64,000 nt of DNA, taken from the IMG/VR virus record IMGVR_UViG_2703718774_000012; one strand, given 5' to 3'. Below the pieces are notes generated by a model. The model was not told the origin of the DNA. It ran no database searches and saw only the letters and a program-made list of their open reading frames with translations. Below are positions 10,310 through 23,688 of the stretch, one piece after another. The position numbers and the translations under genes were made by a program. This DNA comes from a virus. Its lineage: Duplodnaviria > Heunggongvirae > Uroviricota > Caudoviricetes. The stretch's first letter is position 1; each line of letters starts with the position of its first letter.

Positions 10310-13300
10310 ATGAACAAGCTATCTATGGGGGTGTTTCGCTGTTCAAGTGTCAGCGAAATATTGAAATACATTAGGGCAATAACATCTCACCGAGCGCCGA
10401 TTAAATACGGCGTGGAAAAGGTGGAAGGCAAAAGCTATGACCGACTGCGCCGGGAGGCGAATCAGAAGGCGATAGATTTGCTTAATTCACTGGTGGACGG
10501 CGCGACACTGACAGATGAACAGCGCCAGATCCTGGCTGGGTACACCGGTGAAGGCGGCATTGGCGGGTCCGTCTCCGAATATTACACACCAAAGCCGATC
10601 GCTGAAGGTGTCTGGGAGATCATGAAGCTCTACGGCGCGGACGTAGGTAACACTCTGGAACCATCGGCGGGCACCGGCGTTTTTAATGAGACAAAACCGG
10701 TTGGTACGGTGATGACTGCGACTGAGATCAGCAGTGTTTCCGGTCGTATAAACCAGTTGTTACACCCGGAAGACAGCGTACAGATTTCCCCGTTCTAACA
10801 GCTGGCTATAAGCACACCTAACGATTCATTCGACCATGTTGTGGGTAACGTTCCGTTCGGCGGTCGTGATAACACACGCAACATCGATAAGCCTTACGCA
10901 GAAGAAACGGACATGGGTTCTTACTTCATGCTCCGCATGCTGGACAAGATAAAGCCAGGCGGATTCATGTGCGTGATTGTGCCGCCGTCCATTGTTTCAG
11001 GTTCAAACATGAAGCGGTTACGCCTGCGCCTATCACGGAAAGCAGAATTTCTTGGTGCCCACCGCTTGCCTACCGGTACTTTTGACGCAAACGGGACCAG
11101 TACGGTCGTAGATGTGGTGCTGATGCGCAAACATCCGGCAGAGATGGCTGAGAAAATCCCCCTGGTGGATGAAAGCACTCTTGAATCAGCAAATGTGCTT
11201 TGGCCAACGTTTATTTCTGGCAAGTGGTTTGAAAAGGATGGCCGCCGGTTTGTTCATGGCACCCAAGAAAAGGGCTTCCGGGGGCGTATTGAGGTTCGTG
11301 CCGACGGTCAGATTGATAACCAGGCTCTTAAAGCGAAGCTGATTCATCGTTTCGAAAGCCGTATCGACTGGTCTTTGCTCGATATGGCTGAACCGTCACC
11401 GACCGCAGACGTTGTTGGTGAAGGGGAAATGCGCCTGATTAATGGTGTATGGCAAAAATATGCTGGTGGTCGCTGGATTGAAGCTGATGCCGGGAAGGAA
11501 CTTAAGATCGATGCTGCCAGTTATGGCGCGGATAGCTGGGAGGCTCTTCAGCGTAACCTGACTACAACAGAAGGCCGTCTCGGCATGACATTTACCCAGA
11601 TGGCAAATGTCCGCGATAAGTACACCACATCAATCAGCGACGATATGGTGCAGCTGGTGGACTGGATTAACAGCCAGCCTGAAAAATACCGTGAACGCTT
11701 GTATCGCGGGGCGATGATTGGCCGGATGTTAATTGAATATCAGGACATGAAGGCCGCCGGGCATAGTGCTGAACAAATCGAACAGCAGCGCCTTTCTCTG
11801 GTATCCCGTTTGCAGGCAGAGATTGACCGTTTTGGTAACCCCGGTCGCGGTCCGATAGCGAAATTATCGGGGAGCGGTGCGCGCGCCTGGTTTGCTTTCC
11901 GTGGTGCAATTAAGCTGGATGGCACTATTTCTGACGAGCTGACAGGAAAACTGGTTACGCATGATTCCAGCGCCAGTTATGACTCCACCAGCTATCAGGA
12001 CACCCTGCGTTATCTCTACAGTGATCTCACTCGCGATCCAATCCAGCTCGATGATTTCCGCCTTGCGTTTACCGGCGAACTGCCAGCCAGTGATGATGAG
12101 TTGCTTAATTTATTGGCCAGCACCCCTGGCATTGCGGTTTCACCGTATGGCGGGATTGTTCCGTTCGCCCGCGCCACCAGCGGCGACATTAACGAGATAG
12201 TGGCTCCAAAACAGGAATTCCTCGCCACGCTCCCCGACGGTCCAGTAAAGAACAACGTCCTTAATCAGCTGGCAGCGATCGAAGAGAAGCGCATCAAGAC
12301 GCCAGCAGAGAATATCCGCTTTAAGCTCAATAGCCGTTGGTTCGACCGCTCCGTCATTCTGGAGTTTTTGCAGGAAAACGGCTATCCGGATCTGCGCTAT
12401 GTGCAGTCAGTGCAGCTGGAAGGCGACGAAATGGTTTCTGACACCTATCACGGTGGTGATGGTCTGTTCGTCGGGCACCGATACGGTGTCGTCCAGCGCA
12501 AGGATAAAGAAACAGGCGAGATCCGCTACGAGTGGGACCGTAAATCAGGTGAAAACGCGACCGGGTTCCCGGCACAGCTGGAAAAGTATCTCAATGGTGC
12601 GCGTATCGGTGGCAAAGATAGCGCGACGGCGAACGGCTACCGCGAGCAGATGGCACTGCTTGAGGACCAGTTCAATAAGTGGATCAAGACGCACGATCGC
12701 TACGATGAGCTGGTTGCCAAATACAACGATGTGTTCAATAGCAATATCCCGTATGAACACTCTGGCGATCCGCTTGGGTTGAAGGGATTAAGCGGTAAGC
12801 GCCAGCCATTTGATTACCAGAATAGCGAGGTGCGCCGACTGTCCGAAGATGGGCGCGGCATCCTGGGCTTCGGCACCGGGCTGGGTAAAACCACGACCGC
12901 GCTGGCGCTTGAGGCGTTCAACTATGAGAACGGTCGCTCCACCCGTACTGCTTATGTAGTGCCTAAATCAGTGCTGGAAAACTGGTATTACGAAGCAAAA
13001 GAGTTCCTGAGTGAAGAGGCATTCAGTAACTACCTGTTCGTCGGTCTTGATGTGCTGATGGATGGCGATCAGATTCGCCAGGTGCCGGTGCTCGATGAGA
13101 ACGGTAAACCTGTTCTTGGTACTGATGGCACTCCAGTTATGCGCGATGCTCTTAAGCTGGCAGATGAAGCCACTATCACGGCGCGGATGAACGCGATCCC
13201 GCACTCAAATTACCGTGCAGTCGTGTTTACCAAAGAACAATACGCCCGCATTCCGCTACGTGATGACACCGTAGATGAGCATGCACAAGACATGCTTTAT

Positions 13301-16300
13301 GACTTCGTTGCCGCCGGGCGCGTAGCCAGCGCAATGGATTCCGACTCCCATCGTAAAGAGGCGGCGCGTCGCTGGGTATTGTCGGAGTATTCAGATACCG
13401 GTACCGAAAAAGCAGAGAAGTATCCGTACTTTGAGGATATGGGCTTCGATAGTGTGATCGCCGACGAAGGTCACAACTACCGCAATAGCTATAAAAATGG
13501 TCGCGAAGCGTCACAACTGGCCTATCTGCCCACCAGCGCGGTGGCGCAATCGGCGCGGGATATGGCAATCAAAAACGCGTACCTGATGAAAAAGAATGGC
13601 GGGCGCGGGCCGGTTCTCCTGACTGCAACGCCAGTCGTTAACACCCCGATCGATGCATACAACATGCTTTCTCATGTTCTGCCGAAGGAATACTGGCAGA
13701 AGATGGGGATCTACGGTCCTGATGACTTCGTTAAATTCTTCGGCAAGACCAGGCTGGAAACGGTACAGAAAATCAGCGGTGAAGTTGAAGAAAAAATGGC
13801 GCTGGTGGGCTTTGAAAACCTTGATGCGCTGCGCGGTATATTCCATCGCTGGGTAACGCTTAAAACGGCGGAAGACGTTAAGGATACCGTGGAGATCCCG
13901 GAGCTGGACGAACACCAGCAGGATGCACCACTTACTGAAGAACAACTGGCGGCGTATGAAGAATTGCGTCAGCAGGCGGAAGCGGCGGCCAAAGCCAACA
14001 ATGGCGTAACGACCTCGGTCAATGAAGACGGCGTGATTGAGCACGAGAAAGCCCGTCCGATCTTCTCAATAATCAGGGATATGGACCGCGTATGTACTGA
14101 CATGGACCTGTACTATCGCCGGATCACCTATCGTTTCCTGCCGGAGTACGCAGATGCGGTGCAGCAGCTGGCGGACAGTTTGCCTAAACAAGCCACCAGC
14201 GAAGACGACGACAGTGATGATTCAATCACGCAGCAATCGCAATACTCCCTGATAGATAAGGGCGAGTTTATTCAGTTGCAGGTTCCGGAAGCGTTCGAGC
14301 AGGAAGTGAATAAGCGCCTGGCCAGGTTTGGCATTGACGAACAGACCGTAACTCACCCCGTTACGCCCAAATACGCGAAGCTGATTGCCACGCTGAAGGA
14401 GTTTTTCCCGGAAGGTAAGCAAATCATCTTCACCGATGAAAAAACGCAGCACCAGAAGCTCAAGCGCATTATCTGCAATGCTCTTAACCTTGAACCTTCA
14501 AAGGTGGGGATACTGAATGCTCAGACGGTTGCCGAGGCAGGTAAAACCGGTAAGAAACTGAAAGCGGTTAAACCGCCGAAAGAGCTACCGGATGAACCAA
14601 CAGATGCACAGATAGCGAAATACAACGAGCAAATGGCTCTGTATGACGCCTATATCGCGCAGCAAAATGAAATGTCGCTGGGCGGGCTGGAAAAGATTGC
14701 TGCCGACTTCCAGGAGGGCCGGACTCCGATCATCATCTGCAACAAAAAGGCAGAGGTGGGTATCAACCTGCATCGAGGAACGACTGACATCCATCATCTG
14801 ACGTTGCCATGGACACCAGCCAGTATCGCACAGCGTAACGGTCGCGGTGCCCGAGTTGGTTCCAACCGTGCAAGCGTTCGCGTTCACTACTACTGCGGCA
14901 AGGGTTCTTTCGATGAATACCGACTGAAGACGCTGAAGCGTAAAGCAGGCTGGATCTCCGATATCCTCCGTTCAGATAAGTCAGAAATGGAGAACGCCGA
15001 CGCCAACGATATGATCGAAATGCAGATGTATACCGCTAAGGATGATGGCGAACGTCTGGCAATGATGCAGGTTCAAATGGATAAGGCGAAAGCCGCGCAA
15101 CGCGCTCGCCAGAAAGAACAGGCTACTATCGACCTTCAGAACTACATCAAGGCGCAGCACGCAGCTGGTGAGGATGTGGAGGTGCTTACCGCTGAATTAG
15201 AGCGAAGAAAAGCGGAACTCGAAAAGACCACCGCCGACGTCGCCAAATTCAAACAGGCGGTAATGGCCAAAGCAGCTGATAACGCAGACTGGAAAGCCCG
15301 CTGGGGTAGCGTCCATCACACAGACCGTACGTTGTTAGCACAGTATCGCGCGTCGTTGAAAAGCGCCATTCAGCGCAAGGCTAATATCTCTCAAGCCATC
15401 TCCCGCTATGAGAAATTATTGAACCGTACTCAGAAGGCCGCGACGGATATCAAACGCCTTCGCCCGCTGGTGGAGGATGCAATAAATAAAGGCATTCTGG
15501 ATGTTGATCCTGACCTGGTTAACCATGCGAGTGAGTTCCTTATTATCGGCGATCGCTCATGGCGTGTAGGCCAATACTACGATTGTGCCGGTGATATCGT
15601 TCGCATTAAGTCGCTGGACTTCGACAGCCAGCGCGCAGACGTGGAGATTATCTTTACCTTCAAAGGTACCAAATCGGGTAACTGGGATGTGAAGACGCTG
15701 GATAAACAGGTTGATGTAACTCCCGATGAAGATGCTGTTATGCAGAAAATCAGTGGTGGCGTCTCCATCGCCGGGATTAACGACATCATTTCCTGTGACG
15801 ATTTCTACCGTTTCCAGCAGCGCGGCATGATCAAAATCACTGACTCATACGGCGTTCAGACTACAGAGTCAGGCTATAGCATTGATTTTGTTGGTACCTA
15901 TACGGACCCACTGAAGCATGCGGTTTACCCGGATCGCCGTGACGGCGCGCTGAAGTCGTCAATTGCAAAATGGGTGCTTGGTATGATGTCTGAAGGGAAT
16001 AACCGCCAGGTCCGTTTGGCAGAAGTATTCCTGACTGAACTGTTTGGCTCCAATTATGGCGATGTAATCGCGTCATATGGAGATACGCTATCCCCTGAAG
16101 CAATTCAGGAGAAAATAGCGGATGCGATCGCCAGAATGCCGGAGAAAACAAGCCAGGGGGCTACTCGTAACGGGGATTCTGAACTTGAGGTCACCAATGC
16201 CATTTTCGGTACCCATGAGTTCCGGGCGTCAGATTATGAGATCACCACAGCACAGTTTGGCACCATTGGCATTTACAGCAATAAAGCCGAGATCAAGCAG

Positions 16301-17077
16301 GCAATGGACGCAGCAAGCGCGCGTATCGCAGCAGAACGGGAAGCCAATCTGAATCATGCAGTCGCCGCACTGACTCAATCGTGGGTAACAGCAATCAGGG
16401 AGGCCGCCACCACAGGGAAAATCACACCTGCAATTGCGGATGTCGTAAACGACGGCTCTAAATTTATGGATGCCTATCAAATGGATGCGGTGAAGTTGCC
16501 ATCAGCCTATGGTCAACTCAGCTATCGCATGACCTACAACCTGGTATCAATGTTTTCCGACCTTGCCATCCTTGGGCTGGTGGATCTTAACGAGGTTACG
16601 CCGGAATTGCTCAGCATGCGCAAGAATCATGTGGAGATATTGCAGAGAATTAACACGGTTCTTGCCGGGCGCACCGATGAAGAGAAACAGGCCGACGCTG
16701 ATCGGATAAACCTGGCCCTTGGCAACATCACGGAGGAAGAAATTGCCGCCAGAAACGAGAAACAAGAAGAGTTATCATCAATACAGGGTGATGCCACCAG
16801 CATAGCTCAGTCTCTTGGTCTGAATTATCGCGTATCCACCGCCGACCTGAAGATGATGTACGCACCAAAATTCGCCGCTGGCGAGGTATTTGGGCTTCAG
16901 GAAGCCTCAGGCATGAAAGGCGTTCTTTTCCGTGCGAAAGACGCAATCAAGGCGAAATTCGGCGCTCGCTGGCTGCCAGCGAAGGCGAAGAACAGCGATT
17001 TCCCGGGTAACTGGTGGATTATCGAGACAAAACACAACGTGGCGGACGTTCTGGCCGTCATCCAACAATACGCATAA
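10310..17077 (+). pseudogene. darB: darB-like antirestriction gene (2255-codon frame: N6-adenine methyltransferase + SF2 helicase) interrupted by in-frame TAA at 10796-10798
   Basis: Track ORFs 10310..10798 and 10841..17077 share one frame and are separated only by the TAA. SAM motif EPSAGTGVF lies before the stop and NVPFGG (NPPF-like) after it; helicase motifs GFGTGLGKTTTA and VIADEGHNYRN follow. Confidence 0.85.
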
Positions 17078-17110
17078 CAGGAGCGCCCGGTTCGCCGGGC
17101 GTCGCATAAT

Positions 17111-17551
17111 ATGGCCACACTATCTGATACAATAAAACCGAATAAAACATATCTTGAGGCGGTACTGCGTACGGCGTTGTTAGGAAAGACAGAAGACGAA
17201 TACGTTGATTTCTTCCTGTCAGGGCTACGTGGGCGATTACTGAAAAATCCCCGCCTGTACCGCAGCTATGGCCCATACTGGCCGGAAATTAAAAAATTAT
17301 TACTGGAGCGCGGTTATGGTAATTTCGGTCGTCTCGTAGACCGTGACGTTCGCAAAATTTACCGTTATGACCGCCCGGCGCTAACACTCATAGCCGCGAC
17401 GCTCTACAGCCAGGAGCGTTTTGATAATGGTCAGATATACTCAGCCTGGCATTTACTGCCAGTGCCTGAAGAAGTTGACGACCAGGACTATGAGTTTGAG
17501 TCTTACGATTTGGAAGTTGAAGCCTTGGCACAGGCTGGAGAGAAAACTTGA
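17111..17551 (+). CDS. ulx: Ulx-like protein (146 aa)
   Basis: ORF directly downstream of darB and overlapping the next gene; synteny with P1 darB-ulx-lxc. Confidence 0.55.
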   Translation: MATLSDTIKPNKTYLEAVLRTALLGKTEDEYVDFFLSGLRGRLLKNPRLYRSYGPYWPEIKKLLLERGYGNFGRLVDRDVRKIYRYDRPALTLIAATLYSQERFDNGQIYSAWHLLPVPEEVDDQDYEFESYDLEVEALAQAGEKT

Positions 17552-17796
17552 AAAAGCGATACTACACAGTAAAGCATGGGACGCTACGAGCATTACAAGA
17601 GTTTGCTGACAAGCATAACGTTGAGGTGCGCAGGGAAGGGGGAAGTAAAGCTCTGCGCATGTACCGTCCGGACGGGAAATGGCGGACGGTCGTCGATTTC
17701 AAAACTAACAGCGTTCCCCAGGGCGTCCGCGACCGGGCATTCGAAGAATGGGAACAGATCATCATAGATAACGCATTGCTCCTGAATGCGGATTGA
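17548..17796 (+). CDS. lxc: Lxc/Bof-like modulator (82 aa)
   Basis: 82-aa ORF coupled to ulx; size and position as P1 lxc. Confidence 0.55.
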   Translation: MKKRYYTVKHGTLRALQEFADKHNVEVRREGGSKALRMYRPDGKWRTVVDFKTNSVPQGVRDRAFEEWEQIIIDNALLLNAD

Positions 17797-17805
17797 TTTA
17801 TATAT

Positions 17806-17835
17806 CGGGCAGTTGTAGCTGCCCGTTAAATTTTT
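17806..17835 (+). terminator. rho-independent terminator
   Basis: CGGGCAGTTGTAGCTGCCCG hairpin followed by TTAAATTTTT. Confidence 0.8.
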
Positions 17836-17847
17836 GCCGCTCTTCAA

Positions 17848-19155
17848 TTACACTATATCTTTTACTATAGAATTAGCATCCTCCAGTACGCCAATTTCTT
17901 CGATGCGTTTTTTTATTATTAATCGATTTGAAGCAATGATTGTGGACCATCTTGTTTCCCAAGCTCTATAAGCATGCCACGAATAACCTAATCTCATTTC
18001 TTTGCTCATGTTGGACATTGAGTATTCAACGGCGTCTAAATATTCATTTTCATACTTAGTTCCACCAATTTCTAAAAGGCTGCCGAAATATATAAGCCAT
18101 TTTGCAAGCTGCTCGTATTGCTCCCAAGCACCACTCTCTCTTGTTAAATCTCTTTTTTGTTTTATTATTCTCTTGAAAAAATCAACTACTTGTCCGTCAT
18201 TCCAGTCGAAACCCTCAGATATAATCGAGGAGGTTATTTGATAGAATGAATCTTCTAATCTAAGGTATTCATCCTTATAGTTGAAAGTGCCTGATAAAAC
18301 TCTTTTTATACTTTGTCTGGCTCTTGCTATGACGCCTTCAATTAACATTATGTTAATGCTCAATCTCTTAAAGAAAGAGTCTATTTCGGTGTTGTCAATT
18401 ACTCGTATTCCAAAACAATAAAAATAATAATCCTTCATATCTTGACTTACTTCACTGCGAGAGATGAAAAATATATTAGAGCACAGAGCGTTACCTTTCG
18501 AGAATATTTTGTAATCATTTATAATTGCTTTTAGGTTCGTGTCGCTTAAAGAATAGCCTAATATCGCAACTGTATTTTCATGCAGCATCGTGCTAAGTTT
18601 TCGAGAGAAATAAGTGTCGGAGTTTATAAACCTAAAATAGTCTTCTGATGTAACAATCATGTTTTGTGGAGAGTCAATAGAACCATGGACATGATATATT
18701 TTAACTTTGGAGGGATATTTAGGAATAGGTAAGCCTGGGGTAATAGACTGAACCTCCTCATCTCCAGTTAAGTATTCAGCTAACTTGTCATAATTCGTTG
18801 TAATGACACGAAATGTTCTTTTTTGAAAAAAATCCTTTATATTTGATATATCTTCGCCAAGTTGTATTGGAGATATGATGTCAACAATTTCATCATAAAT
18901 CGACTTGCCTTCAATGTTGAGCTTCAAAGATAGTATCTGTGCGGCTTCTTCAAGACTCAGTGCTGGTGGTTTATCATCAGGGAATAACGTGTCTTCCAAC
19001 TGTTTGGCGTTGTGAACTTTGCTGCAAACTTTTTTTAATAGTTCTTTCCACGTTGGTGCTTCGCCGTTCGAGACTGCCTTTGAAAAGCCAGTCCCGGTAA
19101 ATAGACAAAGCCTGCTTGTAGCGGCAGCGTATGCTAACTCAACATATTCGCTCAT
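17848..19155 (-). CDS. SIR2-like (SIR2_2-type) protein, 435 aa; candidate defence effector
   Basis: Motifs LFTGTGFS (GAGxS-like), TTNYD, HVHGS and ILGYSLSD in the N-terminal half; markedly lower GC than flanks; RBS GGAG. Confidence 0.8.
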   Translation of the reverse strand: MSEYVELAYAAATSRLCLFTGTGFSKAVSNGEAPTWKELLKKVCSKVHNAKQLEDTLFPDDKPPALSLEEAAQILSLKLNIEGKSIYDEIVDIISPIQLGEDISNIKDFFQKRTFRVITTNYDKLAEYLTGDEEVQSITPGLPIPKYPSKVKIYHVHGSIDSPQNMIVTSEDYFRFINSDTYFSRKLSTMLHENTVAILGYSLSDTNLKAIINDYKIFSKGNALCSNIFFISRSEVSQDMKDYYFYCFGIRVIDNTEIDSFFKRLSINIMLIEGVIARARQSIKRVLSGTFNYKDEYLRLEDSFYQITSSIISEGFDWNDGQVVDFFKRIIKQKRDLTRESGAWEQYEQLAKWLIYFGSLLEIGGTKYENEYLDAVEYSMSNMSKEMRLGYSWHAYRAWETRWSTIIASNRLIIKKRIEEIGVLEDANSIVKDIV

Positions 19156-19211: not shown

Positions 19212-19853
19212 TTATAGATAATTTCCTTTTCCTGTTAATTCCCCTTTCGGCACCCGTTTTTGTGCCAGCGTTTGGGTTCCGCGAATTATGTTAATCAGAG
19301 GGCTTAGTAACGATGGCTCCTGGCGGGCCTCAACTTCTCCAGCCATTGCCCTGATGTAGTCGGCGCTGGCAACGTTGTTGTATTCCGTCGCAAAGCAACA
19401 TAGTAACGTCAGAACATGTTCTGTCGTTATTTCGCTCCAGTTGATGTTGAAAAATTCATCGCCTTTTTTATCGTGTTCGGAATCGAAGATGCTTTGGTGA
19501 AGGATGTATTTGCCGGATTCCTTGCGCGGTAACTTGATCGCTTTCTGGCGTTCCAATTCCTTGTAAATCTGCATTGCTTCAATCAGTACCGGTCTGCCGT
19601 TCATGAAGGGATCACGCAACCTTACACGCTGGCCAACTCGACCGGTAATAAAGCTGTTTTCCTCTTCCACCAGCACGATAAAACCCTTTTCCTCTTTTTC
19701 TCGCAATTCGCGCAGCAGCTGGAGTTCCATATCGCGGCGGCGTTCAGGGTAGCTGGTCCGCTCAGCCATGATCAGCTCATTGTTGATCCATGCAGCAGTC
19801 ATTGACGCCGGTTTGCCGACGCTCATTGAAACAACGCATATTTTCTTATCCAT
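19212..19853 (-). CDS. mat: Mat-like particle maturation protein (213 aa)
   Basis: Track ORF 19212..19880; start at ATG 19853 with RBS AGGGG; position between ref and the res/mod slot. Confidence 0.5.
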   Translation of the reverse strand: MDKKICVVSMSVGKPASMTAAWINNELIMAERTSYPERRRDMELQLLRELREKEEKGFIVLVEEENSFITGRVGQRVRLRDPFMNGRPVLIEAMQIYKELERQKAIKLPRKESGKYILHQSIFDSEHDKKGDEFFNINWSEITTEHVLTLLCCFATEYNNVASADYIRAMAGEVEARQEPSLLSPLINIIRGTQTLAQKRVPKGELTGKGNYL

Positions 19854-20041
19854 AGCGCCCCTACAAAAAAGAAAAGCCACCAGCGGCGGCTTAGCAATAC
19901 AACTGAAGGTAGCGCCCGGTACTCAGACTGTGCCGTCCATGGAATATTTGAAAAGGGATCCATCCGTACCGGGCGTGTGATGATTCTGACTGAAGTCACT
20001 TGTCAGTTGTCAATCATTTATCATTAAAAATAATATATTTA

Positions 20042-20602
20042 TTAGTGCATGATGTTTGCCATCTCATAGGCATCAGCCAGTAACTCCATCTCTGACTTGT
20101 TCAGCAAGATGAATTCTTTCTTGCCTCCAACCACACCATCGGCATGAACAGGGACCAGCCATGGGTATTTTTCTCTTACTTCAGCCGGAGCTGCATGCTG
20201 GTGGTGCCATCTACAAAGTGGCAATTGCTTTTTATGACAACCCGGCGCGGTACGACCGGCGATATGGTGCAGAGACACCTCATTAGATATTACTCCATGC
20301 ATATAGCAGGCAATGCAGGGGAGAGCGCCAAGAGCATTGGCGATGCGCCGTTCCTCCGCCGTTGGTGTTCTCCCCTTCAAGCCACGAGATTTTATTTTTA
20401 CCGCGCTTTTCCGCGTTTTGCTGGCTGGTGGGCGCTCTTTCTGTTTAGCGATACGGCGGTCGATAGAATCCCGCATTTTCTGATATTGCGATTCTCTCCA
20501 GGCGGGGTCAGCCAACTTTTCCCGTTGCCGAGCGATCGCTCGTTCTCTGGCTGCCTTCTGCCACTCGCGGCGCTGTTCAAGTTTTTGTTCGATTGTTTTC
20601 AT
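20042..20602 (-). CDS. ref: Ref recombination enhancement function, HNH endonuclease (186 aa)
   Basis: MKTIEQKLEQRREWQKAARERA... with Cys/His cluster CIACYMHG...CRWHHQH; start at internal ATG 20602 of track ORF 20042..20707. Confidence 0.9.
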   Translation of the reverse strand: MKTIEQKLEQRREWQKAARERAIARQREKLADPAWRESQYQKMRDSIDRRIAKQKERPPASKTRKSAVKIKSRGLKGRTPTAEERRIANALGALPCIACYMHGVISNEVSLHHIAGRTAPGCHKKQLPLCRWHHQHAAPAEVREKYPWLVPVHADGVVGGKKEFILLNKSEMELLADAYEMANIMH

Positions 20603-20607
20603 ATGGC

Positions 20608-20634
20608 AAAAAAAAGGCGGCCTAATGGCCGCCA
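20608..20634 (-). terminator. rho-independent terminator on minus strand abutting the ref start
   Basis: GGCGGCC-ATTA-GGCCGCC hairpin followed by nine T ending 5 nt before the ref ATG. Confidence 0.7.
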
Positions 20635-20700
20635 ATGATGTCAAGGAGTTAAGTAATGGCAACGTCTTCGTAGTTGACAAAAACTGCGGCTCAATTATAG

Positions 20701-20717
20701 CAATCAATTAGAGCAAT
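20701..20717 (-). promoter_or_regulatory. C1 operator-like site upstream of ref
   Basis: CAATCAATTAGAGCAAT, 14/17 to consensus (reverse orientation). Confidence 0.5.
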
Positions 20718-20847: not shown

Positions 20848-21159
20848 TTATTTCATCATGGAAGCTGTTAACGCTTTGGATCTTGCTGAACTGATTGAAA
20901 GGGCATTGTTTACCTTACCCAGGAGTTCGCCAAATTCCGCCATCACTCTAGTAAGCCCTCGCCGCGCTTCCTCCTCCGTTGCATTCATCACAAAATGTTC
21001 AGCACTCCGCATGCTTTTAACGGGGAACGCAACAGATATCGAGTCGATATCAGGCATCCTATCGCTCAATTTTACGGTGACAATGACAGATGGTGACTGA
21101 ATTTGAGAGCTTACAGACAGCACCACATATTTTCCGTCTATTTTGAAATCCTTCCGCAT
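20848..21159 (-). CDS. cra: Cra-like small protein (103 aa)
   Basis: ORF directly downstream of cre; synteny with P1 cre-cra-ref. Confidence 0.5.
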   Translation of the reverse strand: MRKDFKIDGKYVVLSVSSQIQSPSVIVTVKLSDRMPDIDSISVAFPVKSMRSAEHFVMNATEEEARRGLTRVMAEFGELLGKVNNALSISSARSKALTASMMK

Positions 21160-21175
21160 GTGTCACCATAAATAT

Positions 21176-21192
21176 CAAATAATTAGAGCAAT
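21176..21192 (-). promoter_or_regulatory. C1 operator-like site between cre and cra
   Basis: CAAATAATTAGAGCAAT, 14/17 to consensus. Confidence 0.5.
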
Positions 21193-21209
21193 CAAGTAAA
21201 AATGAACGG

Positions 21210-22241
21210 CTAATCGCCATCTTCCAGCAGGCGCACCATTGCCCCCGTTTCACTATCCAGGTTACGAATGTAGTTCATGACAATATTTACGTTGGTCCAG
21301 CCACCAGCTTGCATGATCTCCGGTATTGAAACTCCGGCGCGGGCCATATCTCGCGCGGCACCGACACGGGCACTATGTCCAGACCAGGCCAGGTATCGCT
21401 GACCAGAGTCATCTTTTGCCCCGTAAATCAATCGGTGAGTTGCTTCAAAAATCCCTTCCAGGGCGCGAGTTGATAGCTGGCTGGTGGATGATGGCGCGGC
21501 AACACCATTTTTTCTGACGCGGCAAAACAGGTAGTTATTCGGATCATCAGCTACACCAGAGACAGAAATCCATCGCTCAACCAGTTTAGTTACCCCCAGG
21601 CTAAGTGCCTTCTCTACACCAGCGGTGCTAACCAGCGTTTTCGTTCTGCCAATATGGATTAACATTCTCCCACCGTCAGTACGTGAGATATCTTTAACCC
21701 TGATCCTAGAAATTTCGGCTATACGTAACAGGGTGTTATAAGCAATCCCCAGAAATGCCAGATTACGTATATCCTGGCAGCGATCGCTATTTTCCATGAG
21801 TGAACGAACCTGGTCGAAATCAGTGCGTTCGAACGCCAGCGCCTGTTTTGCACGCTCACCGGCATCAACGTTTTCTTTTCGGATCCGTCGCATGACCAGT
21901 GAAACAGCATTGCTGTCACTTGGTCGTGGCAGCCCGGACCGACGATGAAGCATGTTTAGCTGGCCCAAATGTTGCTGGATAGTTTTTACTGCCAGACCAC
22001 GCGCCTGAAGATATAGAAGGTAATCGCGAACATCTTCAGGTTCTGCGGGAAACCATTTCCGGTTATTCAACTTGCACCATGCCGCCCACGACCGGCAAAC
22101 GGACAGAAGCATTTTCCAGGTATGATCAGAAAACGCCTGGCGATCCCTGAACATGTCCATCAGGTTCTTGCGAACCTCATCACTCGTTGCATCGACCGGC
22201 AATGCAGGCAAATTTTGGTGAACGGTTAACGAATTAGTCAT
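21210..22241 (-). CDS. cre: Cre tyrosine recombinase (343 aa)
   Basis: Near-identical to recalled P1 Cre (MTNSLTVHQNLPALPVDATSDEVRKNLMDMFRDRQAF...MVRLLEDGD); loxP lies 0.8 kb upstream. Confidence 0.98.
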   Translation of the reverse strand: MTNSLTVHQNLPALPVDATSDEVRKNLMDMFRDRQAFSDHTWKMLLSVCRSWAAWCKLNNRKWFPAEPEDVRDYLLYLQARGLAVKTIQQHLGQLNMLHRRSGLPRPSDSNAVSLVMRRIRKENVDAGERAKQALAFERTDFDQVRSLMENSDRCQDIRNLAFLGIAYNTLLRIAEISRIRVKDISRTDGGRMLIHIGRTKTLVSTAGVEKALSLGVTKLVERWISVSGVADDPNNYLFCRVRKNGVAAPSSTSQLSTRALEGIFEATHRLIYGAKDDSGQRYLAWSGHSARVGAARDMARAGVSIPEIMQAGGWTNVNIVMNYIRNLDSETGAMVRLLEDGD

Positions 22242-22633
22242 TTATTATGCGTGATTTTAACAGTTAAGCCTTGTTCATGAAGTATCTCATCAATAATTCG
22301 AATCACATCCCCTGGTAGATCATCGTTCTCGAAATATCTGTGATCGGGGATTTCTACAGTGATTGGGGTTGCTGCTTTATGCAAAATCCGAACAATCTTT
22401 TTTTCTTTTTTGCATGTTGCATATTCAGCCTCTTCGATATCTATCCAGCTCGCACCATCAAATTGCTGGTAAACCCGAGTGTATAGTAAGCGGTTTCGCT
22501 TTACTTCTTCTGCTAACTCCCAAATTGCAACAGCCATAGCACGTTCATTTTCATTCGTTCCAGGGTTAGCAGCTTTTTGTTTTGCGTCGTTCAGTAAGGC
22601 GTTTACCTTGGCATCTGTCAGGCCATTAAACAT
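22238..22633 (-). CDS. hypothetical protein (131 aa) translationally coupled to cre
   Basis: Its TGA overlaps the cre ATG (ATGA); about 40% GC; no motif recognised. Confidence 0.55.
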   Translation of the reverse strand: MFNGLTDAKVNALLNDAKQKAANPGTNENERAMAVAIWELAEEVKRNRLLYTRVYQQFDGASWIDIEEAEYATCKKEKKIVRILHKAATPITVEIPDHRYFENDDLPGDVIRIIDEILHEQGLTVKITHNK

Positions 22634-22652
22634 TCATCACCTCATGATCAAG

Positions 22653-22874
22653 TTAAATTATTGTTTTCAGCAGAGTGTACAGGATTGGCTCTGCCTTTAC
22701 CTGGTTATGGTTCTCGTCATAGAAACGCCAGCGACCGCGCGTGCGTTCTATTTTCTCTTCACCGCGAGATAATGACAGTTGGTAACTATCACGCTCAAAC
22801 CATTTTGCCCGCCAGTAACCACGGTTTTTCTCAAGCTCAAGATGAGTGGACACTTTAGCAGCTGAATATCCCAT
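22653..22874 (-). CDS. hypothetical small protein (73 aa)
   Basis: ORF track only; may overlap the cre promoter region. Confidence 0.3.
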   Translation of the reverse strand: MGYSAAKVSTHLELEKNRGYWRAKWFERDSYQLSLSRGEEKIERTRGRWRFYDENHNQVKAEPILYTLLKTII

Positions 22875-22970
22875 TTTTCACCTCTGATTGATTGGTGGTG
22901 CTAAGTGCGCTACGCGAAATCTGGAGCACTAACACTGCCAACATTTCGCAGATTTTACGTAGCGCAACCT

Positions 22971-22992
22971 TGATCAAATGATCAAGTGATCA
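22971..22992. promoter_or_regulatory. three TGATCA (Dam GATC) hexamers in the lox-cre regulatory region
   Basis: TGATCA at 22971, 22979 and 22987, 8 bp apart; P1 cre promoters are known to be Dam-sensitive. Confidence 0.5.
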
Positions 22993-23063
22993 CTATTTGA
23001 CCTGATAAGGTATTGAACTGTATGGATTTACAGGTAAATTAATCATGTTCAATAACTCTTAAG

Positions 23064-23097
23064 ATAACTTCGTATAATGTATGCTATACGAAGTTAT
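23064..23097. other. loxP: loxP site (Cre recombination target)
   Basis: Exact 34-bp ATAACTTCGTATA-ATGTATGC-TATACGAAGTTAT. Confidence 0.98.
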
Positions 23098-23140
23098 TAG
23101 GTCTGAAGAGGAGTTTACGTCCAGCTGCGCATAAAAATCA

Positions 23141-23157
23141 AGAATTATTAGAGCAAT
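23141..23157 (-). promoter_or_regulatory. C1 operator (c1/coi control region)
   Basis: AGAATTATTAGAGCAAT, 15/17 to consensus. Confidence 0.7.
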
Positions 23158-23223
23158 AAATCTTGAGAGAAAAATCCCACTCCACCAGCCAAAAACTGGA
23201 TTGTTTTTCATAGTTGTTTGACA

Positions 23224-23240
23224 ATTGCTCTAATAAATTA
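23224..23240 (+). promoter_or_regulatory. C1 operator (c1/coi control region)
   Basis: ATTGCTCTAATAAATTA, 16/17 to consensus. Confidence 0.8.
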
Positions 23241-23478
23241 TAGTTTTGCCGCCGTTTCGTAATACGACTTTGGATTCACTATTTAATGTGTCTTCAGCGT
23301 TGTAGAGCGGCTCAGAAGGAAATGAGCAAACAGGGAAACCTTATACAACGGCATTACAGCTATGCATTGCTCATCTTACACACAGCGCAATGTTGTTAGA
23401 TTACCCCAGCATGGATCATGGGTGAAACAGTAGGTCAGAGCTTCAGGCTCTGTGTTGTCAATACAGTGAGGCATAATT

Positions 23479-23688
23479 ATGGCTTTCATTCCACCAACCA
23501 TCGACGACGTTAGACATTGCTCTAACGCTTTATCTGTAGACCCCGCCGAAACCGACGCTGCCCGCGCCATTGCTGAACACTACTCAAAGATATCCAATCA
23601 GGAGTACCGCATCACCCAAGACGACCTGGATGATCTCACTGACACAATCGAATATCTCATGGCCACTAACCAGCCAGACTCACAATAA
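23479..23688 (+). CDS. coi: Coi, C1 inactivator (69 aa)
   Basis: 69-aa ORF immediately upstream of c1; size and position as P1 coi. Confidence 0.8.
   Translation: MAFIPPTIDDVRHCSNALSVDPAETDAARAIAEHYSKISNQEYRITQDDLDDLTDTIEYLMATNQPDSQ

Follow-up and report, generated by a model that had tools for sequence, protein, structure and literature searches.

Few recombination systems are used as heavily as Cre-lox of phage P1, whose native operon is regarded as lox-cra-cre. What is the role of an additional open reading frame (ORF) that lies between cra and cre in a P1-like element, and does its product act on Cre? We studied this question in a 64,000-nucleotide stretch of viral DNA (IMG/VR record IMGVR_UViG_2703718774_000012, Caudoviricetes; hereafter the window, meaning this whole stretch), which carries the immunity/cre end of a P1-like phage-plasmid and in which the lox-cre features all lie on the minus strand. 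An original prediction, made from the letters of the window, had pointed to an ORF of 131 amino acids (aa; here orf131, its product ORF131) directly upstream of cre as an addition relative to P1. Our overall picture is that orf131 would be a real, horizontally exchanged accessory gene, carried as a 404-bp cassette by a minority of P1-type phage-plasmids and having a cargo role, and we give this picture a probability of roughly 0.6.

An additional ORF separates cra from cre

In the window, loxP and the cre start are 823 bp apart (23064 - 22241, with 822 bases between), as had been predicted, and this is about double the distance in P1. By the P1 record (NC_005856; lox centre 1, cra 207-428, cre 436-1467), the lox end and cre are separated by 418-419 bp, against the ~430 bp given in the prediction; 7 nt lie between the cra stop and the cre ATG, and there is no ORF in between. 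Alignment of the lox-cre interval to P1 and to the empty twin L164 (a near-identical relative that lacks orf131) placed a 404-bp gap at 22249-22652, and this net insertion accounts for the wider spacing. Mismatches cluster on both sides of the gap (22221-22248 and 22654-22673) and are confined to 7 codons on each side (the end of cra and the beginning of cre), with the Cre N-terminus changing from MSNLL in P1 to MTNSL in the window; over its full length, the Cre of the window is 98.5% identical to that of P1. The TGA of orf131 and the ATG of cre overlap as ATGA at 22238-22241, again as the prediction had read it.

The prediction had also listed a 73-aa ORF further upstream. It is present (22653-22874), but it is not a novelty: its product shares 93% identity with P1 Cra and matches phrog_804 over its full length (1e-32), and its counterparts are annotated cra or 'ORF1' in P1, P7, phiW39, SJ46 and X03453. 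We therefore assign this ORF to the known P1 gene cra (Cre-associated protein).

orf131 as a protein-coding gene

Three variants of orf131 are on record, namely the window type, an E. coli variant (L004) and a Salmonella variant (L005/L006), with protein identities of 82-89%. The reading frame is open in all three despite 23-50 nt differences, and between the window and L005 31 of 46 nt differences fall at third codon positions, giving a ratio of nonsynonymous to synonymous change (dN/dS) of 0.11 (0.25 and 0.53 for the remaining pairs). Because the frame stays open across three variants with this excess of third-position changes, orf131 goes beyond chance, and we judge it to be a real protein-coding gene. 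It was also called by the RefSeq and PHROG gene callers, and its Shine-Dalgarno (SD) sequence and its stop/start overlap are conserved. The lack of a domain, of a confident structure and of more than very few homologues would fit a chance open frame in non-coding inserted DNA, but the substitution pattern effectively refutes that explanation.

The same numbers bear on whether the protein itself matters. Residues 34-66 and 100-131 are near-invariant, with dN/dS of 0.02-0.05. If the ORF131 protein were irrelevant, the ORF could be a translated spacer or attenuator that sets the number of ribosomes reaching cre, or a neutral hitch-hiker; cre has no SD sequence and must depend on upstream translation, and no function can be assigned to ORF131, both of which agree with such a role. 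However, the low dN/dS (0.11 overall, and lower still in the two blocks) points to selection on the amino-acid sequence itself, and the ordinary 7-nt cra-cre junction already gives coupling, which makes a pure spacer improbable. Replacements concentrate at residues ~64-90 (window ~22364-22444), which hold 7 of the 14 changes that separate the window from L004, while the N-terminal helices and the last 40 residues of the protein hardly differ among the three variants; residues ~64-90 may form a variable surface or a linker.

ORF131 has a predicted mass of 15.0 kDa and an isoelectric point (pI) of 5.6. It matches PHROG 20152, a family of unknown function, from end to end (E = 3.8e-92, residues 1-131 against profile positions 1-131 of 131). 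The expectation that neither upstream ORF has a recognisable domain was borne out, as Pfam, NCBIfam and PADLOC were negative for both and the matches were to PHROG profiles only (phrog_804 and 20152). For ORF131, these three collections gave no domain with the full protein, and neither did Pfam with the separate halves at E <= 10. Sub-threshold matches to an FkbM methyltransferase (0.093), AadA (0.06) and TOBE_3 (0.04) were rejected as noise, as was a known anti-phage defence protein (the sole PADLOC-DB v2 match was a JetC coiled-coil with E = 0.01 and 11.7 bits). The top match of a PDB sequence profile search, a designed coiled coil (E = 0.74), was likewise rejected. A HicB-like antitoxin N-terminal fold (beta-beta-'DLPG'-helix-beta, residues 79-130), considered as a lead, was not supported: no HicB or UPF0150 profile in Pfam matched the full protein or residues 75-131 at E <= 10, and there was no fold match. 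Two AlphaFold2 runs gave predicted local distance difference test (pLDDT) scores of 53 and 58. The model is mostly helical and suggests a helical N-terminal part followed by a small alpha/beta C-terminal part, at low confidence and too uncertain to use, and fold searches with the models returned nothing specific or significant.

Occurrence of orf131

A word-indexed search of 5.8 billion proteins found six ORF131 clusters, every one from E. coli or Salmonella. An exhaustive HMMER profile scan of 1.84 billion representatives added, beyond the ORF131 family, a 63-aa fragment and a 630-aa repeat protein; the latter, in which a 22-residue motif was matched six times, was discarded as spurious. By tblastn, orf131 is present in 14 of the 704 PLSDB records that match the lox-cre region, and neither tblastn nor a DNA search found it in any of 50,697 phage records. 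Complete E. coli genomes that carry cre have it in 32 of 695 cases, mostly Shiga toxin-producing E. coli (STEC) of serotypes O111:H8, O111:H- and O103:H2. The gene is thus sporadic, being found in about 2-5% of P1-type elements, and every copy sits between cra and cre and overlaps cre by the same 4 nt (the ATGA is present in L003, L004, L005 and L006 as in the window). In the records NZ_CP015229.1 (E. coli 06-00048 chromosome, 1878341-1878755) and NZ_CP012497.1, one strain appears to have orf131-cre both on a 136-kb plasmid and in a chromosome, which reflects either an integrated P1-like element or a disagreement between its two assemblies.

The lox-cre spacing of 80 IMG/VR loci with a P1-type cre is 410-419 bp in 62 and 822 bp in 8, and intermediate or alternative spacings are absent. 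We rejected the cra-cre junction as a general hotspot for cargo, with these 80 loci and five diverged lineages holding either nothing or orf131 at this place. A scan of GTDB species representatives for Cre relatives gave two P1-type loci only and added nothing.

Plasmid pO111_3 (NC_013370; E. coli O111:H- 11128) and related STEC plasmids carry cra-orf131-cre at 99.7-100% identity, with orf131 annotated as 'hypothetical protein'; with essentially no difference from the window, they belong to its element family. No paper describing orf131 was found in the searchable literature, which did not cover the P1 genome paper. The arrangement cra-orf131-cre is, on this comparison, best filed as a natural, so far undescribed variant of the P1 cre operon.

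Insertion and probable horizontal exchange of the cassette

The cassette is a presence/absence polymorphism in two diverged backbones. In the backbone of the window, E. fergusonii pJD053 (L164) is 97.9% identical across 18 kb, yet has cra-7nt-cre without orf131. The Salmonella backbone (L005/L006), whose Cre and Cra are 81% and 62-66% identical to their P1 counterparts, carries orf131, while L171 and L172 are without it though their Cre and Cra are 99% and 97% identical to those of L005. Five further lineages, with Cre identity down to 65%, also have cra followed after 7-8 nt by cre. We take the empty cra-7/8nt-cre layout to be the ancestral state, with orf131 inserted and not lost from P1.

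Divergence and composition would place the arrival of orf131 later than its surroundings. Between the window and L005, the synonymous difference (pS) is 0.36 in orf131, 0.62 in cra and 0.80 (saturated) in cre, and orf131 would therefore be much younger than the split of its hosts. The GC content is 40.5% in orf131, 46.1% in cra, 50.5% in cre and 47.9% in the window. The much lower divergence of orf131 compared with its neighbours, and its higher AT content, make import by recombination its probable origin. The filled sites of both backbones (window and L005) also have a common cra-side flank, CTCTGCTGAAAAC(A/G)ATAAT, unlike the empty twins. We propose that the cassette, which has no mobility genes, would enter through homologous recombination in the conserved stretches on either side, the 3' end of cra and the 5' end of cre, and would have done so in at least two backbones; spread through this flanking homology would explain its fixed site.

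The opposite history, in which orf131 belonged to the original cre operon and was deleted in P1, could draw on the presence of the ORF in two diverged backbones and on the Cre N-terminus MTNSL, which also occurs in non-P1 lineages. We hold it to be highly improbable, given that P1 and five other lineages share the empty layout, that pS is 0.36 in orf131 against 0.80 in cre of the same two elements, that GC is 10 points below that of cre, and that each filled backbone has a near-identical empty twin.

Probable expression and coupling to cre

The original prediction had further proposed that orf131 and cre are co-translated from a Dam-regulated promoter region. Its coupling part is strengthened by three results. 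The ATGA overlap is conserved in all three diverged orf131 variants, the SD energies against the anti-SD sequence in the window are -7.1 kcal/mol for cra and -6.9 for orf131 versus +1.5 for cre, and no terminator-like site was found on the minus strand from cra through the end of cre. The orf131 SD (GAGGTG) is conserved in L004 and L005, and across all lineages the cre value ranges from -2.5 to +1.5 kcal/mol. The promoter part needs correction: the three TGATCA hexamers at 22971-22992 exist as stated, but the nearest promoter to orf131 is the predicted counterpart of P1cre (pR3), not the one at the Dam sites. A consensus promoter scan found none on the minus strand, which says little because the same scan misses the annotated weak cre promoters of P1 itself. 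An Rfam search of 21000-23600 matched no family. RNA folding around the cre start gave no structure above shuffled controls (z = 0.69), and thus no evidence for a hairpin that masks the cre start.

The predicted P1cre counterpart sits within the 3' end of cra, in the same register as the annotated P1cre of P1 (400-424). It keeps the -35 TGTACA and has a -10 of AATAAT versus CATTAT in P1, and it now adjoins orf131 instead of cre, 24 nt 5' of the orf131 ATG. The hexamers of the predicted P3cre (pR1) counterpart are the same as in the P1 annotation, with GATC sites present upstream of cra, and the -35 of P2cre has a single change relative to P1 (TTGATC to TTGAGC). The Dam sites differ in detail. 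The third TGATCA of the P3cre cluster is TGACCA in P1 (three sites in the window, two in P1), Dam site 1 of P1 is lost in the window at 23041-23047 (ATGATCAA to ATGATTAA), and a GATC is gained at 22646-22649, in the spacer that follows the cra stop and 5' of the orf131 SD.

In none of the lineages examined does cre have an SD sequence, and in all of them it starts 7-8 nt past, or overlapping, the upstream stop (window 22241, L001:436, L087:3501, L088:3501, L005:4393). Termination-reinitiation is established behaviour of closely spaced or overlapping cistrons. As no lineage provides cre with its own ribosome-binding site (RBS), cre translation presumably relies on ribosomes that have just finished the ORF before it. 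For P1 itself, this suggests that Cre synthesis is coupled to cra translation or proceeds from a near-leaderless pR3 transcript. For the window, we infer co-transcription and re-initiation coupling of cra-orf131-cre: the conserved P1-type promoters, namely P3cre (with its Dam sites), P2cre and the P1cre counterpart, would serve all three genes, and the cassette, by supplying a good SD (GAGGTG) and the ATGA overlap, would turn the relay cra to cre into cra to orf131 to cre.

Accessory cargo or a partner of Cre

We favour accessory cargo over a Cre cofactor as the role of ORF131. A cargo role appears most likely for a gene that is sporadic, AT-rich, horizontally exchanged and dispensable in all other Cre lineages. 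ORF131 would then be a cargo ('moron'-type) protein made at a low level alongside Cre in the lysogen, from an operon with presumably weak, constitutive expression, and outside the recombination reaction. The two orf131-positive backbones share no Cre substitutions beyond the junction codons, and this counts against a tight partnership with Cre.

Several points weigh on the other side. Every known orf131 homologue is confined to the position directly 5' of cre, which also fits a Cre-related function, and typical cargo genes occur in several contexts. Unlike classical morons, orf131 has no recognised promoter or terminator of its own. Neither homology nor structure supports a biochemical function of ORF131, with AlphaFold2 pLDDT at 53-58 and empty fold searches. 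Among the 32 E. coli carriers, related O111/O103 STEC plasmids predominate, and the persistence of orf131 could be partly clonal. Promoter activity in the cre region and re-initiation are read from sequence and from the P1 annotation.

The confinement to one site leads to the rival in which ORF131 is an accessory factor of Cre-lox that binds Cre or lox and tunes level, timing or directionality, for example by favouring dimer resolution, with the overlapping stop and start ensuring stoichiometric co-production as in xis-int of lambda. All homologues found in the collections of 5.8 billion and 1.84 billion proteins directly precede cre and overlap it by 4 nt, and this in backbones with a Cre identity of only 81%. 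ORF131 is under purifying selection, the cassette was retained after at least two independent introductions, and the stop/start overlap would fix the ORF131:Cre ratio. Against these observations, Cre-lox is self-sufficient by established knowledge (to our knowledge, no accessory protein is needed), and ~95% of P1-type elements as well as five diverged Cre lineages manage without orf131. The protein is acidic (pI 5.6) with no DNA-binding or Xis-like domain, the two orf131-positive backbones have no co-adaptive Cre substitutions in common, and the fixed position is equally explained by spread via flanking homology, the simpler account. We regard an accessory factor as unlikely. A narrower form, in which ORF131 is a natural partner of Cre in fixed ratio that limits Cre activity or toxicity or biases it toward plasmid dimer resolution, is a shade more doubtful; if true, it would be the first accessory factor known for Cre-lox.

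A natural variant of the cre operon carries an additional, selected protein-coding gene with a predicted direct link to cre translation, and cre, which has no RBS in any lineage examined, appears to depend on translation of whichever ORF precedes it. If ORF131 acts on Cre, it would open a new way to influence Cre regulation; as cargo, its gene would join the orphan accessory genes of P1-like phage-plasmids in STEC and Salmonella. Under either reading, the question is easy to put to the test with the isogenic 'empty twin' plasmids.

Features of the window and neighbouring genes

The closest relatives of the window are the E. coli plasmids NZ_AP027178 and NZ_AP027163, with 99.5% identity across 18 kb. 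The features of the lox-cre region and of the genes downstream of cre are listed in Table 1. The predicted LexA box has invariant columns when aligned to positions 46-65 of P1, the annotated LexA binding site in the P1 record.

Table 1. Coordinates of features in the lox-cre region of the window and downstream of cre.
Feature	Position	Strand	Remarks
loxP, canonical 34 bp	23064-23097	-	exact 34/34 match to ATAACTTCGTATAGCATACATTATACGAAGTTAT
LexA box counterpart, predicted	23016-23035	.	core CTGT-N8-ACAG 23018-23033
P3cre (pR1) counterpart, predicted	22952-22992	-	-35 TTGATC 22972-22977; -10 TAAAAT 22952-22957
Three TGATCA (Dam GATC)	22971-22976, 22979-22984, 22987-22992		overlap the P3cre hexamers
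cra, 73 aa	22653-22874	-	pI 9.6; SD GAGGTG
P1cre (pR3) counterpart, predicted	22657-22681	-	-35 TGTACA 22676-22681; -10 AATAAT 22657-22662
cra-orf131 spacer, 19 nt	22634-22652	-	orf131 SD GAGGTG 22638-22643; extra GATC 22646-22649
orf131, 131 codons	22238-22633	-	396 bp; 3' end CAT AAT AAA TGA
ATGA stop/start overlap	22238-22241	-	orf131 TGA and cre ATG
cre, 343-aa tyrosine recombinase	21210-22241	-	PF00589 at 2.9e-32; without SD
Recombination patch	22221-22673	-	404-bp net insertion and dense flanking mismatches
ref	20042-20707		PF16786; downstream of cre, as is c8
222-aa ORF	19212-19880		counterpart annotated 'maturation control protein' in pJD053
SIR2-like gene	17848-19155		PF13289
2,078-aa ORF	10841-17077		annotated in related plasmids as N-6 DNA methylase, helicase-related or SNF2-related

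Further downstream, the region 10841-19155 looks like a variable defence locus, because P1 carries its res/mod restriction genes at the matching position.

The interval between lox and cre has been extended in a second way. Salmonella and Cronobacter P1-like lineages have an ORF of 353-356 aa between loxP and cra (L005:2699-3769; also L087, L088, L168, L170, L171 and L172), which has a match to phrog_7674, a family of unknown function, and none in Pfam, PADLOC or PDB. There is a 4-nt overlap between its stop and the start of cra, so that L005 has the chain orf356-cra-orf131-cre with a lox-cre distance of ~1,890 bp. The interval is thus expandable (418, 822 and ~1,890 bp) by ORFs that overlap each other's stop and start codons.

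In the Salmonella lineage (L005:2468-2501), loxP is 34/34 identical to that of P1 while Cre is 81% identical and synonymous sites are saturated, and loxP is therefore very strongly conserved relative to Cre. Three P1-like IMG/VR contigs (L018, L034 and L045, at ~2570-2590) precisely lack loxP with both flanks intact. This could be a real deletion, Cre-mediated or other, or an artefact of screening against vectors, which commonly contain loxP.

Comparison with known systems

In gene layout, orf131-cre resembles xis-int of lambda, where a small ORF also lies directly 5' of, and overlaps, a tyrosine recombinase gene. The resemblance is in layout only. Recombination directionality factors are small basic DNA-binding proteins with a winged-helix or helix-turn-helix (HTH) fold, whereas ORF131 is acidic (pI 5.6), has 131 aa and matches no Xis, Excisionase or HTH family, and Cre needs no directionality factor.

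Phage morons offer a second comparison. Like them, orf131 is present or absent between conserved genes of near-identical genomes, has a lower GC content, is patchy in distribution and is an orphan. Morons have their own promoter and terminator, whereas orf131 is embedded in an operon, with a predicted translational link to it, and occurs at a single site.

The closest likeness in organisation is the P1 cre operon (lox - P3cre/P2cre/P1cre - cra - cre; NC_005856 1-1467), whose order and orientation are the same in the window. Common to both are the canonical loxP, the LexA box, the Dam-site promoter hexamers, cra (93% aa identity), cre (98.5%) and a cre that has no SD and starts right after the upstream ORF. 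The window differs in that orf131 (396 bp) and a 19-nt spacer are interposed so that cra is not directly before cre, in that the 7 terminal codons of cra and the 7 initial ones of cre are replaced, and in that the P1cre counterpart precedes orf131. Apart from the cra-cre junction, all features tested place the module of the window in the P1 Cre-lox operon family.

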